Assembly: GCA_048941265.1 (NCBI GenBank)
Contig: JBHLNT010000021.1
Location: forward strand, 1-30,856
DNA from: Promethearchaeota archaeon
GTDB lineage: Archaea > Asgardarchaeota > Lokiarchaeia > Sigyniarchaeales > SOKP01
Length of the DNA stretch: 30,856 bases
Direction of reading: 5' to 3'
Shown: piece by piece, positions 22,386 to 29,719 of the stretch
Numbering within the stretch: position 1 is the first letter of the stretch
How the letters are laid out: the number at the start of each line of letters is the position of its first letter
Notes under the pieces: generated by a model
Database searches by the model: none
Seen by the model: the letters and a program-made list of their open reading frames with translations, nothing else
Told to the model about the DNA's origin: nothing
Made by a program: the position numbers and the translations under genes

Positions 22386-23597
22386 GTGGCTCATATAAAT
22401 AGCAAATTTACTCCAAAAGAATTGGATGAATTAATTAATAGAAATAATATGAGTAAATCCGAGGCAATTAACCTCTTAATTTCTTTAATTGAGGGATCTA
22501 ATTCTGGAGAAATTCGCACTAAGTATCTAAATATGTTTGAAAGCTTGTCTTTGAAAAATAAGAAAGCCTTTATTTTTATAGAAAATCTACTTATATCTGA
22601 TGAAAATCAAATTGTTAGAGCAACTGCTTCTAAAGTTATAGTTAAGCTTTTTCCAGAGGACTGTCTTAATCCTTTAAAATGGACAATCCAAAATGACAAT
22701 TCTTCCTATGTATTAACTACTATCAAAAATTTGATTGGAAGACTAAATAATCAATTCAATGATATATTAAATATTGAATACTCAAAAAGGCTAAATATAA
22801 TCGCCAAAAATTATGGCGTCATGCTAAAAGAAGCCGAATTTTTAATGGATATTGGATTAAATCCTAAATTCTATAGAGATTTGGATTCAGATTCAAAGCG
22901 TAATGTAATTTATGGAGATAATATTTTGGTAATAGCTAAGGAGAACCATATAAGGGCCATAAGCTTATCAAACTGGAAACCAGAAAGTCTTCCAGAGTCT
23001 ATACGTAATTTAGAAAAACTGAAATATCTTAATTTAAGTTGTAATGAATTAAAAATTTTGCCTACTTCGATCGATGAGCTTACTCAGCTTAAATTTTTAG
23101 ATCTAGGCTGGAATAAATTTCAATCAATCCCAAGTTTTTTGGCTAAAGTTAAGTCAGTCAAGAATTTTCGGCTAGATTTAGATCATAACGAGATAAAATC
23201 AATACCTAAATGGATTGATAATCTTGAATCATTAAATTATTTGAACTTAAGAAAAAACCATATTGAAGTAATCCCTGATTCTATAGGGAATTTAAGAAAC
23301 TTAGAATTTTTAGATTTAAGGGAAAATCGATTGGAAATCATTCCTGATTCTATTGGTTCAATTCCCGCACTTAAAGTTTTATGGTTAAATAATAATAGGA
23401 TAAAATATATCCCCAAATCAATAGGAGCTCTAATATCGCTTGAAGTTTTGGACTTGGGGAATAATAACATTCAAGAAATACCTGAAGAAATAAGCAAGTT
23501 AAAATCATTGGAATTTTTGAATCTAAAGTATAACAAAATCAAGGAAATACCAGAATCAATTAAAAAATTAGACAAGCTTAAAACAATTAGAATATAA
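22386..23597 (+). CDS. HEAT-repeat + leucine-rich-repeat protein
   Basis: N-terminal ENLLISDENQIVRATA (HEAT-like), then about 9 23-aa LRRs (IPDSIGNLRNLEFLDLRENRL). Start uncertain (GTG 22386 or ATA 22395). Confidence 0.92.
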   Translation: MAHINSKFTPKELDELINRNNMSKSEAINLLISLIEGSNSGEIRTKYLNMFESLSLKNKKAFIFIENLLISDENQIVRATASKVIVKLFPEDCLNPLKWTIQNDNSSYVLTTIKNLIGRLNNQFNDILNIEYSKRLNIIAKNYGVMLKEAEFLMDIGLNPKFYRDLDSDSKRNVIYGDNILVIAKENHIRAISLSNWKPESLPESIRNLEKLKYLNLSCNELKILPTSIDELTQLKFLDLGWNKFQSIPSFLAKVKSVKNFRLDLDHNEIKSIPKWIDNLESLNYLNLRKNHIEVIPDSIGNLRNLEFLDLRENRLEIIPDSIGSIPALKVLWLNNNRIKYIPKSIGALISLEVLDLGNNNIQEIPEEISKLKSLEFLNLKYNKIKEIPESIKKLDKLKTIRI

Positions 23598-23603
23598 CTA
23601 TAT

Positions 23604-24476
23604 TTACTGAGTTAGAATACCTTTTATCTTCTCTAAAATCTCCGGATTTCTAATATACTTCGAATTATTTAACAATAGAACAAAATTTTCAGCTAAAATT
23701 TCTTCAGGGTGTATAATGTAATCAGTATTCATCCCTATTTTTTGTAAATATGATTGAATATCATCAACACGGAATAATTGTAGCTTACCATTTTTATAGC
23801 ATGGTTCGCAACTATTTTTCTTTATAACCACTTCGAGCAGTCGAAATTCAAGATAATCGAAAAAATCACCTCTTTTTTTCAAATTATATGGTTCATTAGA
23901 ATACAATATAGGCATAACACTGATTTCATTATCCTCTAAATAGCAATTTATCAGCGGAGCATCGGGATTAGTAATTTTTAAATCTTTTAATTCCTTAGGA
24001 AATTCTAATTCTGGACAATCAAAAAATCCAATAATATTATATAATTCGCTTCTTTTTTTTGGATTATTTTTCGAATAGATATGAAATAATTCATGAGTTA
24101 AAATATTCTTTAAAGCATATGGAGTATTTATTAATGATTGAGGAAGTATTATCGAATTCCCACGACAATAAGCCGCATTTCCCTCCTCTCTACCTGTTGT
24201 TTTTACAATTGAGATATTTTTTGGAAAATTTAAGGAATACTGATTAAGTTTCGATATAATCGATTCTAATATCGATTCAACTCCCGTGCATTCAAATGAG
24301 CCCCAATCTAAAGCTTGTTTAGATAAAAAGTATAAAAATTCGTTTTGTGAAACTGAATTTTCTGTTTTAAATCTTGAAGCACGGTCAAAAGGGCTTAATG
24401 ATAAAATGAATATATCTCTTGTAGTAAGTACTTTTCTCGCCTCAGTTTTATTCAAGAAAACAATATCCATAGCCAT
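23604..24476 (-). CDS. Putative zincin-like metallopeptidase
   Basis: EEGNAAYCRG strand, LTHELFH (HExxH) and distal HPEEILAENF helix providing a candidate third ligand. Confidence 0.7.
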   Translation of the reverse strand: MAMDIVFLNKTEARKVLTTRDIFILSLSPFDRASRFKTENSVSQNEFLYFLSKQALDWGSFECTGVESILESIISKLNQYSLNFPKNISIVKTTGREEGNAAYCRGNSIILPQSLINTPYALKNILTHELFHIYSKNNPKKRSELYNIIGFFDCPELEFPKELKDLKITNPDAPLINCYLEDNEISVMPILYSNEPYNLKKRGDFFDYLEFRLLEVVIKKNSCEPCYKNGKLQLFRVDDIQSYLQKIGMNTDYIIHPEEILAENFVLLLNNSKYIRNPEILEKIKGILTQ

Positions 24477-24583
24477 TCAAGTTTGTTTTTATCTTTAAAA
24501 TAAATTTAGAAAAAAGTATTTAAAATGAGAAAAAATTTTTAGATTGAAAAGAAACGATTTGGATCTTATTAAAAAGAGAAATA

Positions 24584-25501
24584 TTACGATTCTTGTTGTT
24601 CCTTGAGCCTTTTTTCTTCTTCCTTCATTTCTTTCCTATGTTCTATTCTTTCTTTAATACTTTGGTGCTCGTCATAGCGCTTAATATACATTTCTTCATA
24701 TTTCTGCCTTAATCCTTCCACATCTTTTACATGTCCTAATATATTTTCAAGCCCATCTTCAAAAAACCTATTCTTCTTGTATTTTTCTGAAGGGATACCT
24801 ACATAAATATAACCCTCTTCAAGTTGCTGTCCCACAATTGTGACTGAATTCGCAGCTAAAACGCTTCGTTTACCGATGTGGGTGCCCGGCATAACTACTG
24901 CATGAGCGCCAATCCTTACATCATCTTCAATGATGGTTTTCCTGATAATAAGGAGATTTCCTACTATTACAGCACTTTGGACTATGCTTCCTTGCCCAAC
25001 TACAACATTTTTGCCAAATTCAATGAATTCACAGTCCACCCATCCTTCAAAGAGTGAATTTGTAAAAGTTGTCTTAACACCAAATGCTTTAAAACAGACA
25101 TTATCTAAGAAAGGAAATGGAAATTTATGAGCCAACCATACTGGCCATCTTTTTATAGTATTTCTAAGGCTCCAATATCTATAATCCTTGTCTGTAGGAT
25201 CTCTCATAAACACGCCCTCCTTAGGTTTATGAAAAGCATTTACAATACCTAAAAGTATTTTAGCAAATAAAAGTGCGGTAAAAACCATTGTTAAATACAT
25301 TACAAAAATTAAAAGTGGGAGAAAAATATAAAAATGAACGGGTCGCAATGGGTCGTATAACCACTGCCAATAAAACCAAAACTCGAGTAAAATAGGGATA
25401 ATACTAATCCATATTAGAAAGATATAAAATAATAAGTATCTTTTCTTTACTAATACTGTTGGAGTAAAAGGTCCAACCCTCATAGAAGTAGGAACCGACA
25501 T
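24584..25501 (-). CDS. Membrane-anchored (2 TM) left-handed beta-helix acyltransferase-like protein, paralog 3
   Basis: Two TM helices, HKPKEGVF...YRYW, hexapeptide repeats (FGKNVVVGQGSIV, IEDDVRIGAHAVVMPGTHIG), YIYVGIPS. Confidence 0.88.
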   Translation of the reverse strand: MSVPTSMRVGPFTPTVLVKKRYLLFYIFLIWISIIPILLEFWFYWQWLYDPLRPVHFYIFLPLLIFVMYLTMVFTALLFAKILLGIVNAFHKPKEGVFMRDPTDKDYRYWSLRNTIKRWPVWLAHKFPFPFLDNVCFKAFGVKTTFTNSLFEGWVDCEFIEFGKNVVVGQGSIVQSAVIVGNLLIIRKTIIEDDVRIGAHAVVMPGTHIGKRSVLAANSVTIVGQQLEEGYIYVGIPSEKYKKNRFFEDGLENILGHVKDVEGLRQKYEEMYIKRYDEHQSIKERIEHRKEMKEEEKRLKEQQES

Positions 25502-25505
25502 GTAG

Positions 25506-26399
25506 TTACAACCTCTCTTTTAACTTTTCTTTTTTATCTTCTTCTATATTGATTACTTCTTCTTCAACTACTTTTTGTTCATCATCAACACTACTTTTTG
25601 TCATCTGTGATACAAACGCAAGTTTATTAGGTTTAAGTTTGATAGCTGGAATTCCGAAATAAATCCATCCAGTTTCTAAGACTTGATTTAAAACGGTCGC
25701 GGAAATCGCGCCTAAAAGAGAATCTCTACCGGTAAATGTTCCCGGGGAAACACATGCCATACCTCCTACAACAGTATAATCATCAAGAATTACTTGCTTA
25801 ATTATTAAATAATTCCCTATTACCATTGAACTCATTATCACTGCGCCTTGTCCAACCAATACTCTGCGACCTAATTTAACAAACTCAATATCACACCACG
25901 CATCTGGTAGATGACTTGAAAAATCCATTCGTATTCCAAACCATCTAAAAGCAAGAGAATCCATCCACGGGAGCGGAAAATTTCTAAGAAGCCAAAGTAC
26001 TAGCTTTTTTAGTTCAGTTCTCAAACACCAAAACTCAAAATCAGCATTTCCTATTTCTGCTCTAAACACACCCTCTTTCGGTTTATGAATAAGATTAATA
26101 AGTATTAAAAATAATTTACTGAGGATAGTACAAGATAAAATAAAAATAAAATACATAGCAATTATCGCGTAGGGAAGAAATATTAAGGTTCCTATCCAAG
26201 GTTCCCAATCTTCCGTAATGGGTGGCTTGTTCTTATTCCATTCGTACCAGAAAATTCCCGTAAGAATACCACTTAACCAGATAATTGGGATGTATACCGC
26301 TAAAAATTTAATATTAACTCTACTTATTGCGCTACTTGTTGTGAAATCGAGAGTATAATCATTTTCTTCCTCTGATCCATTATTCGTAGCATTACTCAT
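25506..26399 (-). CDS. Membrane-anchored (2 TM) left-handed beta-helix acyltransferase-like protein, paralog 2
   Basis: Two TM helices, HKPKEGVF...FEFW, LGRRVLVGQGAVI, LDDYTVVGG, WIYFGIPA. Confidence 0.88.
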   Translation of the reverse strand: MSNATNNGSEEENDYTLDFTTSSAISRVNIKFLAVYIPIIWLSGILTGIFWYEWNKNKPPITEDWEPWIGTLIFLPYAIIAMYFIFILSCTILSKLFLILINLIHKPKEGVFRAEIGNADFEFWCLRTELKKLVLWLLRNFPLPWMDSLAFRWFGIRMDFSSHLPDAWCDIEFVKLGRRVLVGQGAVIMSSMVIGNYLIIKQVILDDYTVVGGMACVSPGTFTGRDSLLGAISATVLNQVLETGWIYFGIPAIKLKPNKLAFVSQMTKSSVDDEQKVVEEEVINIEEDKKEKLKERL

Positions 26400-26412
26400 A
26401 ATAAAAAACTCA

Positions 26413-27315
26413 TTATTTTATTTTCTTATTTTCTTTTTTTTGCTTTTCAATTAGTTGTCTCTCTCTTTCTAAATCTTTATCTGTTATTTTTAAATAATTT
26501 AAAATCTTTTTATGGAATATTTTTCTGGCAGGTAATCCAAAATAATAATTACCATCACCCTGAGTAGTTTGATGTTTTGCAACACTGGCCAAAGGTAAAA
26601 AATATGAATTATCTCTTATATCTCCTCCAGGACCAACAATATTAAATACTGAACAGGTTACATTATTACCTATTTTTATTTCAAAATAAGGAATCCGGCC
26701 AAATATTCCTTCTACTACGTGCGAACATATAGCTGAGTTAACTCCGATGTAACAATTATCTCCTACATCAATATATTTATCGGCAACAATTTCTTCTTCA
26801 ATTGTTGTTCCTTTCCCAATTTTATTTGAGCCTACAAAATTATAAAACCAATTCGCCAACCAGGGAAACATTCCCTTTGTGAAAGCATATTTTCCGTACT
26901 TTATCATAAAAGATCTTAGATGGTAATAATTTAAAGTATCACTTGGAACACTTCGAAGAATTATTCCATCTTTAGTTGGACACATTCTTTCAGTAAAACT
27001 CCAAAATAATCTCGTAAATACTCCAATAAATATCAAGTGAAGAACATAACTAACAATCATAACAAAAGGAAATAATAACAAAGCTAATAGAGAGTTTAAC
27101 TCTGTAAAAAGAGAAATAAAATCGGGATTTTCTAATACAAGAGGTTGAAATATTAAGAGATAATATAGCATATAGACTAATCCTGGGATTAGAAATGATC
27201 CAAAATATATAACAATAAAAAAGAGCAAATATAAATGAAATTGAAATTTAACTTCTTTTTTTTCTAAATCTTCAAGTGTATCGGATGAAGGTGCTTCTTT
27301 TGAGTCCGTAGCCAT
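26413..27315 (-). CDS. Membrane-anchored (2 TM) left-handed beta-helix acyltransferase-like protein, paralog 1 (retains His)
   Basis: Two TM helices, PTKDGII, KIGKGTTI, VGDNCYIGVNSAICSHVVEG, IKIGNNV, YYFGLPA. GGTGA RBS 6 nt before ATG. Confidence 0.88.
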   Translation of the reverse strand: MATDSKEAPSSDTLEDLEKKEVKFQFHLYLLFFIVIYFGSFLIPGLVYMLYYLLIFQPLVLENPDFISLFTELNSLLALLLFPFVMIVSYVLHLIFIGVFTRLFWSFTERMCPTKDGIILRSVPSDTLNYYHLRSFMIKYGKYAFTKGMFPWLANWFYNFVGSNKIGKGTTIEEEIVADKYIDVGDNCYIGVNSAICSHVVEGIFGRIPYFEIKIGNNVTCSVFNIVGPGGDIRDNSYFLPLASVAKHQTTQGDGNYYFGLPARKIFHKKILNYLKITDKDLERERQLIEKQKKENKKIK

Positions 27316-27462
27316 CTTATATCACCTTCGAATTATAAACTTTATAAACTTTATCCTAATAATAATATAGATTTTGCTAGGATTTCATTTGATAATTATG
27401 TGAATTTTTATAAAATATAGCCTTATAATTATCTTACTAGATTTCTAATAATTGATTAAGCA

Positions 27463-27852
27463 ATGAAAGAAAAGTGTAAAAACTGCGGAAAATGTTGTAT
27501 AGATACTGAAATGATGATATCCAAAAAAGACATTAGCTTAATTTTAAGACAATATCCGCAAGATTTACGAGAAGAGGATTTTGTAATCAAAAACCATGGT
27601 TATTCTCAATTAAAAAATATCGACGGACATTGTGTATTTTTTGACGCATTTACTAAGAAATGTAAGATTTATATAAATCGTCCTCAAGGGTGTCGGTTTT
27701 ATCCTCTCACATACGATAAAGATAAAAAATTATGTGTTTTCGATGAAGATTGCCCAAGAATCGAGTTATTTTATCTGTCGGATGATGATTTCGAAAAAAA
27801 ATGTCGAAAAATAAAAATCTTTTTACGAGAAGATTTAAATATCCATTTATAA
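27463..27852 (+). CDS. YkgJ/CxxCxxCC cysteine-cluster protein
   Basis: CKNCGKCC, HCVFFD, KCKIYINRPQGCRFYP, C...CP. Confidence 0.92.
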   Translation: MKEKCKNCGKCCIDTEMMISKKDISLILRQYPQDLREEDFVIKNHGYSQLKNIDGHCVFFDAFTKKCKIYINRPQGCRFYPLTYDKDKKLCVFDEDCPRIELFYLSDDDFEKKCRKIKIFLREDLNIHL

Positions 27853-28354: not shown

Positions 28355-29575
28355 TTATATTATTTTTAGTAGTATGAAGCACTCTGAAAAATCATTATCA
28401 CTCGGTCTTAAATATTTTAATAATTCAATCTGTTTTGGAACGACTGTAAACCAACATTCATTTTTTTTAAAGCTATCAGGATTTGCTTCAATTCCTATTA
28501 TATGTCTTTGATTATTTAATTTATAGTAAAAATGGGTTACATAATAATCATCTTTATGTGAAAAGTCAGCATCTAAATAATATTTTGAAAAATTCTCCCA
28601 ATTATGCAATCTTTTTCCACAAAGCATTTCCATCATACCTATGACAGGTGCCTCTTCGGGTCTTATTCCTTCTGAGATATATTTCGGAGCGTATACCCTC
28701 TTAGAAAATGAATATAATGAATCTGCCAATGATGAAAGAGGATTTTTATTTAAATTTAGATACCTTAGAGAAGGTAGTTGTCCAATAAAATTCGGAATTG
28801 TTTTTAACTTATTATCTGAGAAATCTATATGTCGTAGCTGATGAAGATACCTAATTCCATAAGGAATACGTCTCAAGCCTGTGCCACTCGCATTAAGAAA
28901 TCGTAAACTAGTTAAATATCGAATAGATTTTGAGATCTTTTTATTATAACCGAAAAGATTTTTATTTTTAATACGCAATCCAATAACATGATTTTTCCTA
29001 ACAGCATAAATATATTCAAGACCATCATATAGGCTGGAAATTTCATATAATTTAGAAGTTCCATAGTAATACATTTTATCATAAAATTTGATTGCCTCTT
29101 TTTTTGCAAGTTGAAATTCCGATTCAATGAAAAAAGTAACTTCATCCTTTTGTAGTTTGTAACTTTGAGAATATTTTTCCAGAATTTTCTCTAATAGAAT
29201 TCTTGAAAGGTTTTCAGAAAAAAAACCGAGTCCAATAAAAATTGTTTTTAAGATTCTTACTGAAGATTCAATTTGAATGACATCTTTAAGGAAATCTACA
29301 CACTCATCCTTAAATATTTTCATCATGTTAAGAATGGCTGTAATCCTAACATTCGGATTTTCATCTGAAAGTAAAACCAGTCTAAATATATCAAATATCT
29401 TTTTATTTTTTATATTCAATTTAGCTAATTTCTCAATACATTCAGCTCTTACACCCCTAAAATCAGAATGCTCAATAAGAGCAATAAACTTATCTACTGC
29501 TTCAAATTTTGTAATGAAGCCATTCATGTAATCTCTATAAATTTTATTTGGATTTATATGCTCATTAGATTTCAT
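28355..29575 (-). CDS. HEAT-repeat + leucine-rich-repeat protein
   Basis: VLLSDENPNVRITA HEAT-like region, about 3-4 LRRs (LRHIDFSDNKLKTIPNFIGQLPSLRYLNLNKNPL). ATG 29575 preferred to TTG 29620. Confidence 0.88.
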   Translation of the reverse strand: MKSNEHINPNKIYRDYMNGFITKFEAVDKFIALIEHSDFRGVRAECIEKLAKLNIKNKKIFDIFRLVLLSDENPNVRITAILNMMKIFKDECVDFLKDVIQIESSVRILKTIFIGLGFFSENLSRILLEKILEKYSQSYKLQKDEVTFFIESEFQLAKKEAIKFYDKMYYYGTSKLYEISSLYDGLEYIYAVRKNHVIGLRIKNKNLFGYNKKISKSIRYLTSLRFLNASGTGLRRIPYGIRYLHQLRHIDFSDNKLKTIPNFIGQLPSLRYLNLNKNPLSSLADSLYSFSKRVYAPKYISEGIRPEEAPVIGMMEMLCGKRLHNWENFSKYYLDADFSHKDDYYVTHFYYKLNNQRHIIGIEANPDSFKKNECWFTVVPKQIELLKYLRPSDNDFSECFILLKII

Positions 29576-29719
29576 ATCTTTAAGTAAGTGATAAATATTT
29601 TGTTCAGATGCTAAATTCAAGAAAATGATAATATATGTTTTTTGAAAAATAATAAAAAATAAGACCTTAAAAATCTAAATGTTTTAGTTGATAAAATATA
29701 TTTTGAACCTGCGTAATAT

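Follow-up and report, generated by a model that had tools for sequence, protein, structure and literature searches.

Three membrane-anchored beta-helix proteins of an Asgard archaeon, related to the polymer-making end of Pls/PosA synthetases, most likely join in one asymmetric enzyme

We analysed a stretch of 30,856 nucleotides from a Promethearchaeota archaeon (contig JBHLNT010000021.1, assembly GCA_048941265.1), called here the window, and in it a triad of adjacent genes, A, B and C, encoding paralogous membrane proteins that carry a left-handed beta-helix (LbH). The modules formed by these proteins are homologous, well beyond the beta-helix itself, to those found three times at the end of the Pls/PosA synthetases. 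Most likely, the triad is a stand-alone relative of the part of bacterial poly-lysine synthetases that makes the polymer, its three proteins joining in one asymmetric enzyme. More precisely, we think it probable that A, B and C are co-transcribed and form a 1:1:1 ring-shaped heterotrimer with one active site, ensuring acyl transfer at the membrane. A preliminary description, made from the letters of the window, had already proposed a heterotrimeric transferase equivalent to the fused Pls pseudo-trimer; the homology, the fixed 1:1:1 order, the natural fusions, the compact fold predicted by AlphaFold2 (AF2) for a fused homolog and the presence of one His per triad, all detailed below, support this proposal.

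The three genes follow each other on the minus strand: A (26413-27315, 300 aa), B (25506-26399, 297 aa) and C (24584-25501, 305 aa). In the list of open reading frames (ORFs) the coordinates, the lengths of about 300 aa and the gaps—13 nt between A and B (26400-26412) and 4 nt between B and C (25502-25505)—are those first described. The paralogy holds as well: pairwise identity is highest between B and C (36%, E 2e-61), lower between A and C (24%, E 5e-11) and lowest between A and B (17%, E 4e-9). Each protein displays two long hydrophobic segments by the Kyte-Doolittle scale (24-56 and 66-105 in A, 28-52 and 67-105 in B, 16-45 and 52-91 in C), as expected for the pair of transmembrane (TM) helices initially assigned to each. 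Across alignments, the counts of Lys plus Arg at the N-terminus, in the TM1-TM2 loop and after TM2 are 2.8/0.4/2.8 for A, 1.0/0.5/2.2 for B and 3.0/1.3/3.3 for C, which favours a cytoplasmic position of the N-terminus and of the LbH in all three. About half of the residues of the C-terminal tails are K, R, E or D.

Between the TM hairpin and the LbH, a linker with the motifs P.[ED]G[VI] and W.LR had been attributed to the three proteins. It is exact in B and C (KPKEGV; WCLR, WSLR) and fits A only loosely (PTKDGI, YHLR); the end motif of the LbH, Y.G.P[AS], is present in all of them (YFGLPA, YFGIPA, YVGIPS). A Pfam search recognises the hexapeptide repeat (PF00132, Hexapep, cut-off 27 bits) in C, at 40.7 bits, and gives a score below the cut-off for B (14.6 bits) and no hexapeptide match for A. 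In the case of A and B, profile-profile alignment and the AF2 model of the fused homolog document the LbH, so that the hexapeptide LbH first read in each protein stands. No AMP-binding or PP-binding match was found in A, B or C by the same Pfam search. Databases name these proteins "DapH/DapD/GlmU-related" or "hypothetical".

Homology to Pls/PosA was approached by several profiles. TIGR02353, the model of the terminal domain of the Pls/PosA nonribosomal peptide synthetases (695 positions, curated cut-off 423.1 bits), is the top NCBIfam match for B (29.7 bits) and C (41.3 bits) and the second for A (23.4 bits); residues 44-243 of C, TM2 and linker included, align on its positions 24-215. Pairwise phmmer comparisons of A, B and C with Pls proteins gave weak LbH matches only, so that profiles were needed for this comparison. 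A search of proteins longer than 875 aa with the fused paralog of the same genome returned 7 matches, all combining AMP-binding, PP-binding and Hexapep domains in an A-T-LbH3 layout (A and T standing here for adenylation and thiolation), among them a Corynebacterium protein named "Pls/PosA family". Five of these proteins, each cut into three modules, provided Pls module profiles that were compared by hhalign with the Asgard profiles. The C-type profile aligns with Pls module 1 at a probability of 99.1% (E 1.8e-18) over 194 columns, from TM2 through the linker to the end of the LbH; the A-type and B-type profiles align with the same module at 98.1% over 150 and 159 columns respectively. As these alignments reach through the linker into TM2, the homology to Pls concerns the whole module—TM2, P.G turn and W.LR helix—and not just a generic beta-helix. 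The comparison of each protein with TIGR02353 and Pls profiles that had been recommended thus turned out positive, C being the closest of the three to the Pls modules and also the most conserved.

The likeness extends to the general plan. The end of Pls/PosA (TM1-6 and C1-C2-C3, in the synthetases of epsilon-poly-L-lysine, delta-poly-L-ornithine and poly-Dap) likewise gathers three unlike modules in one particle, each starting with a pair of membrane helices, followed by a strand, two further helices and an LbH of the five-turn class, with the P.G and W.LR motifs in the linker, a G.PA end, and a His in one module out of three (QTHLF in Pls module 3, SHVVEG in Asgard A). The 2023 PosA paper (PMC10522769) describes a model with six bent helices and three five-turn LbHs in pseudo-threefold packing, two helices and a strand standing ahead of each LbH, and presents the polymerising end of Pls/PosA as devoid of solved structure; according to a 2015 paper (PMC4668381), this layout had been reported from Pls alone. 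The Asgard modules differ from Pls/PosA by their archaeal host, by the absence of attached adenylation and thiolation domains, and by their distribution in three genes: the single polypeptide of Pls/PosA has no counterpart in the window, the relatives of the triad having two genes or even one.

The triad is not a peculiarity of this contig. Among the best 120 of 682 matches to C, which show 71-94% identity, all those named come from Asgard metagenome-assembled genomes (MAGs), to which their submitters gave the labels Lokiarchaeota, Promethearchaeota, Thor-, Hod-, Hermod- or Odinarchaeota. In a survey of 151 genomes of the phylum, strong matches (2-15 per genome) were found in 25/25 further genomes of the window's family and 2/2 of the sister family, and weak ones elsewhere. 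We then fetched 18 related loci around C orthologs, these being 63-82% identical in 16 of them. The order A, B, C recurs in 17 of the 18 loci, which places the triad far beyond chance and speaks for the conservation of the triplet in related Asgard genomes.

Gene fusions further inform on how the modules are associated. Nine of the loci contain genes in which A and B are joined, 11 in all, for proteins of 585-633 aa. In a second set of paralogs, represented in the same genome on contig C302, C and A are fused and B lies directly downstream, an arrangement found in 16/16 fetched loci. Finally three proteins, P0129 (797 aa), P0285 (805 aa) and P0322 (808 aa), are full C-A-B fusions with six membrane helices, i.e. 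three modules on a single polypeptide as in Pls/PosA. The arrangements A-B-C, [A-B]+C, [C-A]+B and [C-A-B] all come down to a single circular order read from different starting points, which is what a three-module ring predicts. The genome of the window holds altogether eleven modules in five loci: the triad itself, a pair A'-B' on contig C46, [C''-A'']+B'' on C302, a pair on C50 and a singleton on C84. On C302 (C302:17977-18084, L002) the homology of the C-A fusion to C begins about 36 codons 5' of the first in-frame ATG, GTG or TTG; this gene may have a non-canonical start or a miscalled N-terminus.

An indication of asymmetry is given by a single alignment column. A-type modules have a His in 28/28 cases (H199 in A, motif SHVVEG, codon 26719-26721, minus strand); B-type modules have a Ser in 24/24 (S191 in B, codon 25827-25829, minus strand); the 24 C-type modules have 13 Ser and 11 Ala (A177 in C, codon 24971-24973, minus strand). 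The second set has 14 His and 1 Gln in A'', one further His in a truncated ORF binned with module 1, and 14 Ser and 2 Cys in B''. The solitary genes of other Asgard families—dispersed single genes of 242-286 aa that match the module from TM2 onward—all have the His (12/12), and so does every deep-branching single-module relative, aligned with H199 of A in a set of 62 modules. The same proportion of one His for three modules is found in Pls/PosA, in module 3 only (QTHLF, in the 3 proteins shown of 5 aligned), and in the bacterial stand-alone triples P0214, P0191 and P0227, in module 2 only. The invariant His residues of the triad are H199 in A and H125 and H200 in C; within the LbH there is one in A, one in C and none in B.

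We take H199 of A to be the general base of an LbH acyltransferase, by analogy with the family. While LbH homotrimers have a catalytic His in every subunit, the triad has its candidate in A only. If H199 is read in this way, the solitary relatives would be homotrimers with three active sites, and the triplicated forms would have a single one. A precedent exists for an LbH heterotrimer with one complete site: the gamma-carbonic anhydrase of plant complex I, whose structure is solved (PMC8290278). There too, in plants and protists, the particle is attached to the membrane and paralogous subunits occupy fixed positions; it differs from the triad by a three-His zinc site, the absence of acyl transfer, and an anchoring to complex I by an amphipathic helix rather than by TM hairpins. 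A gamma-carbonic-anhydrase identity was considered for the triad and rejected, the His triad being absent; the NF050158 score (21.4 bits) lies far from the cut-off of 250.

The AF2 model of the C-A-B fusion P0129 (797 aa, 37 aligned sequences) has a mean pLDDT of 84.3 and a pTM of 0.85, and forms one compact unit with low confidence in the two inter-module linkers only. Each of its modules begins with two long helices, after which come a short strand, another two helices and the LbH, a succession that agrees with the description of the PosA model in PMC10522769. The C-A fusion of the same genome (P0121), modelled without alignment, reached a pLDDT of 43.5 and was unusable. When the P0129 model was compared with the PDB by Foldseek, maltose/galactoside O-acetyltransferases came best (1ocx, 4isx, 3hjj and 1kru; E 2e-6, TM-score on the target 0.56-0.62). 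These enzymes perform acetyl-CoA-dependent transfer with a catalytic His at the subunit interface. They resemble the triad modules by an LbH with preceding helices, but they are soluble, lack a membrane hairpin and form homotrimers in which there are three active sites. None of the triad proteins belongs to their families by score (NF007076 17.6 bits for A and 17.3 for C, with cut-offs of 347 for NF007076 and 314 for NF007499), and the likeness is of fold only. Neither Foldseek nor a sequence search found in the PDB a module joining a TM hairpin to an LbH: the sequence search retrieved soluble LbH enzymes only, over residues of about 160-290, gamma-carbonic-anhydrase chains of complex I being among its matches. 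In the ESM Atlas we found Promethearchaeota clusters and one bacterial Hexapep cluster only, and no structure.

From these elements a working scheme can be proposed. Once A, B and C have been produced from a common transcript, they would assemble as a 1:1:1 ring-shaped heterotrimer in which three LbHs stand side by side in the cytoplasm atop a bundle of six membrane helices, as the fused C1-C2-C3 of Pls/PosA would do. Since only A keeps the His found in every solitary relative, one active site is expected, at one subunit interface; B and C would have no catalytic role and would serve as scaffold or bind substrate. An acyl group in the form of a pantetheine thioester, most likely acyl-CoA, would enter from the cytoplasmic tip and be passed to a hydroxyl or an amino group, by the chemistry of the LbH superfamily, of an acceptor held in a membrane-proximal chamber formed by linker helices and TM hairpins. 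Given the assembly, we see about an even chance that the reaction is indeed an acyl-CoA-dependent acyl transfer to a membrane-proximal acceptor.

Several observations weigh against this scheme. By score, A, B and C all stand far below the TIGR02353 cut-off, as do the 12 matches to this model in the whole genome (0 above cut-off), and the model, which also finds weak matches in 14/14 control genomes, is not specific by itself. The stoichiometry is not always 1:1:1: two loci (L030, L031) have an extra A, two others (L023, L027) have two A-B units for one C, contig C46 has A'-B' followed by a DUF1295 gene and no C, and in the sister family the 18th locus (L037) has only A and a 422-aa C-like gene. 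The preliminary description had named a variable copy number across genomes as a sign of error; this is partly what we see, as genomes differ in how many triads they hold and C is missing next to some A-B units. The extra A-type and A-B units, together with the high conservation of C, suggest that a C subunit may be shared by several A-B units. Moreover the role given to H199 comes from analogy with the family, and the model that informs on packing, judged from pTM, is that of a paralogous fused protein, P0129, and not of the window's own chains, with only about 6 alignment rows behind its third module. The gene context of the triad, in the 18 loci, indicates no acceptor. Lastly, a gene resembling those of phosphopantetheinyl transferases exists in the genome (C267:4576-5801, L096; PF01648 at 30-32 bits for a cut-off of 25), directly after a MaoC dehydratase gene, so that an unrecognised carrier may exist.

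In another explanation the triad would be the polymerising half of a carrier-dependent, Pls-like homopolymer synthetase, loaded in trans by a stand-alone adenylation enzyme and a carrier, with a poly(amino acid), perhaps exported, as the product. The modules are true homologs of Pls/PosA, linker included, they follow the Pls pattern of one His for three, and the genome offers 32 AMP-binding (PF00501) matches besides the phosphopantetheinyl transferase-like gene. Yet the PP-binding domain (PF00550) has 0 matches, with 15 candidates scored, in this 91%-complete genome, the 32 AMP-binding matches are all on contigs that lack module loci, and no adenylation or thiolation domain was found near any of these loci. 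The Asgard modules also branch outside Pls, and the closer bacterial triples sit with sugar-nucleotide, GT1 and SDR genes instead of adenylation and thiolation domains. We therefore hold a carrier-dependent synthetase to be improbable. The search for stand-alone adenylation and thiolation domains that had been advised gives this result, which fits the donor first imagined: acyl-CoA, or one supplied in trans.

The remaining explanations dispense with a shared enzyme, or with an enzyme at all. LbH enzymes are normally homotrimeric, as are the maltose/galactoside O-acetyltransferases that are the closest solved folds, and solitary members exist in other Asgard families; A, B and C might then be three independent homotrimeric acyltransferases of different specificities that merely share an operon. 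However, B and C lack the His kept by 12/12 solitary relatives, the order and the number of genes are conserved, in the A-B, C-A and C-A-B fusions the modules could hardly avoid sharing a particle, and AF2 predicts a single compact unit for the triple fusion, all of which makes independent homotrimers very improbable. The loss of the His in two subunits out of three could rather evoke a non-enzymatic function, i.e. a membrane-attached LbH scaffold, a channel or a module comparable to gamma-carbonic anhydrase, whose complex I chains do appear among the PDB sequence matches; the richness of the C-terminal tails in charged residues would go in the same direction. But the triad has no three-His metal site, its acyltransferase-type end motif G.P[AS][KR] and the His of A are strictly kept, and its best folds are acetyl-CoA-dependent O-acetyltransferases. 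The probability that we grant to a non-enzymatic role is accordingly very small. Beyond the single-site acyltransferase that we favour lies a more ambitious possibility, which we regard as unlikely: the triads would be carrier-independent processive polymerases of the membrane, or lipid-modifying machines, in which one CoA-thioester-fed site builds a polymer, or an acylated lipid or glycan of the envelope peculiar to Loki-type archaea, threaded through the six-helix bundle. The paralogous triads of one genome, possibly with a shared C, would in that case give different products.

How the triad relates to Pls in evolution was addressed by a quick tree, then by a careful one (48 modules, LG+G4, 14 long or redundant rows being dropped). 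In both, the modules cluster by lineage: those of Pls together, and likewise those of the bacterial stand-alone triples and those of the Asgard triad. The supports (UFBoot/SH-aLRT) are 95/83 for the clade of Pls M1-M3, 100/99 for the bacterial triples, 100/100 for Asgard A, 99/98 for Asgard B plus C and 94/94 for Asgard B. A clade of all the His-bearing modules of the three lineages, a group that was defined after inspection of the first tree, is rejected by the approximately unbiased (AU) test (difference in log-likelihood 94.5, p 5e-42). The trees and the AU test thus argue that the triads are not the product of fission of a Pls gene. The preliminary description, which spoke of a "split" Pls module, was right about the homology of the module and not about the split, at least in the evolutionary sense: a parallel triplication is indicated. 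Judging from these very divergent sequences, and from trees whose roots are unknown, triplication with the loss of two His out of three appears to have taken place at least three separate times.

The bacterial stand-alone triples, which are uncharacterised, include P0214 from a Planctomycetales MAG, its 71% identical relative from an Omnitrophota MAG, P0191, and P0227 in which an SDR is fused to the three modules. Like the triad they have three modules of TM hairpin and LbH without adenylation and thiolation domains, and one His module (m2). They differ from it in that one polypeptide of about 680 aa holds all three modules, which are compact, by higher TIGR02353 scores (168-184 bits), by a clade of their own, and by their neighbours, genes for a GT1, a GMC oxidoreductase, an SDR and dTDP-sugar enzymes in an operon-like row. 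Such a 690-aa triple-module protein is encoded in a Planctomycetales MAG (L065) and in an Omnitrophota MAG (L066); in L065 (6971-15407) it is followed on the same strand by GT1 (EryCIII-like), GMC oxidoreductase, SDR, RmlA-, RmlD- and RmlB-like genes. This sugar-nucleotide and glycosyltransferase context suggests that the module is not tied to amino-acid polymers. Pls-type LbH modules also occur in eukaryotes: two grass proteins of about 2400 aa, P0122 and P0123 (Phragmites, Paspalum), combine them with catalase, amine-oxidase, AMP-binding and PP-binding domains, and represent a eukaryotic Pls-like synthetase with redox domains.

The other module loci of the genome have contexts of their own. 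Near the second set an acyl-CoA dehydrogenase gene is found in 3/8 loci only. The pair of C50 (C50:10495-13690; L006, L007, with relatives L075-L082) is a two-gene version, one member with the His and one without, kept in 8/8 loci; a gene for a 529-aa metallophosphoesterase and a divergent coiled-coil gene accompany it in 8/8 and a ThiI-like gene in 6/8, and none of these neighbours indicates a substrate. The singleton of C84 (C84:43819-44586, L083) is solitary, bears the His and falls in the A clade, with strong matches (53-82% identity) in 22/26 other genomes searched in the family. At the loci of this type (L084-L095) a glycerophosphodiester phosphodiesterase (GDPD) gene adjoins in 9/12, and a convergent gene resembling NDP-forming acyl-CoA synthetases (CoA-binding/Succ_CoA_lig) is present in 7/12; at the C84 locus itself two FAD oxidoreductase genes, read as glpA/glpB-like, are inserted between. 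The contexts of the C84 singleton and of the bacterial triples suggest a CoA-thioester chemistry on glycerophospho- or glyco-conjugates in the relatives, which does not fix the substrate of the triad.

Returning to the window, the region upstream of A (27316-27462, minus strand), common with a divergent gene, contains by our reading two TATA-like TTTATAA boxes ahead of GGTGAT, a Shine-Dalgarno (SD)-like sequence 8 nt 5' of the ATG of A; a promoter function may be proposed for it from these signals. A second SD-like sequence, GAGAGG, precedes C. On the 3' side of C, a T-rich spacer with several oligo-T tracts (24477-24583, minus strand) is probably the end of the A-B-C transcript, judging from its composition. 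With the 13- and 4-nt gaps, these SD-like sites, TTTATAA boxes and oligo-T tracts give A, B and C the appearance of one transcript. The divergent gene (27463-27852, plus strand) encodes a CxxCxxCC protein of the YkgJ type (PF03692, 52.8 bits in Pfam) and is the sole neighbour kept beside the triad, with an ortholog in 10/18 loci; as PF03692 has 8 matches in this genome, the link is weak. Downstream of C, the gene of a 290-aa protein with an HExxH motif (23604-24476, minus strand), whose SprT-like/DUF5700 matches are faint (16 bits), has an ortholog beside the triad in 0/18 related loci. Genes with leucine-rich repeats flank the locus on either side (22386-23597, plus strand, and 28355-29620, minus strand, the second also with HEAT repeats), and neither is kept beside the triad in related loci.

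The triad represents an archaeal and probably heteromeric form of the known Pls-type module, without detected carrier. A full-text literature search found no paper on free-standing or archaeal versions of these modules, in line with the first impression that no such system had been described in archaea. Pls, the bacterial triples and the Asgard archaea each arrived separately at one His in three modules, which points to a design rule of general value. With a Pls-type end cut into three small genes, and fused and unfused forms side by side, the system is tractable; it could show how an LbH trimer turns into an asymmetric, single-site membrane machine, and what the task of each module is. As for its function in the cell, a family so large and so conserved, present in all 25 further genomes of the window's family, likely makes or modifies an undescribed component of the envelope or membrane.

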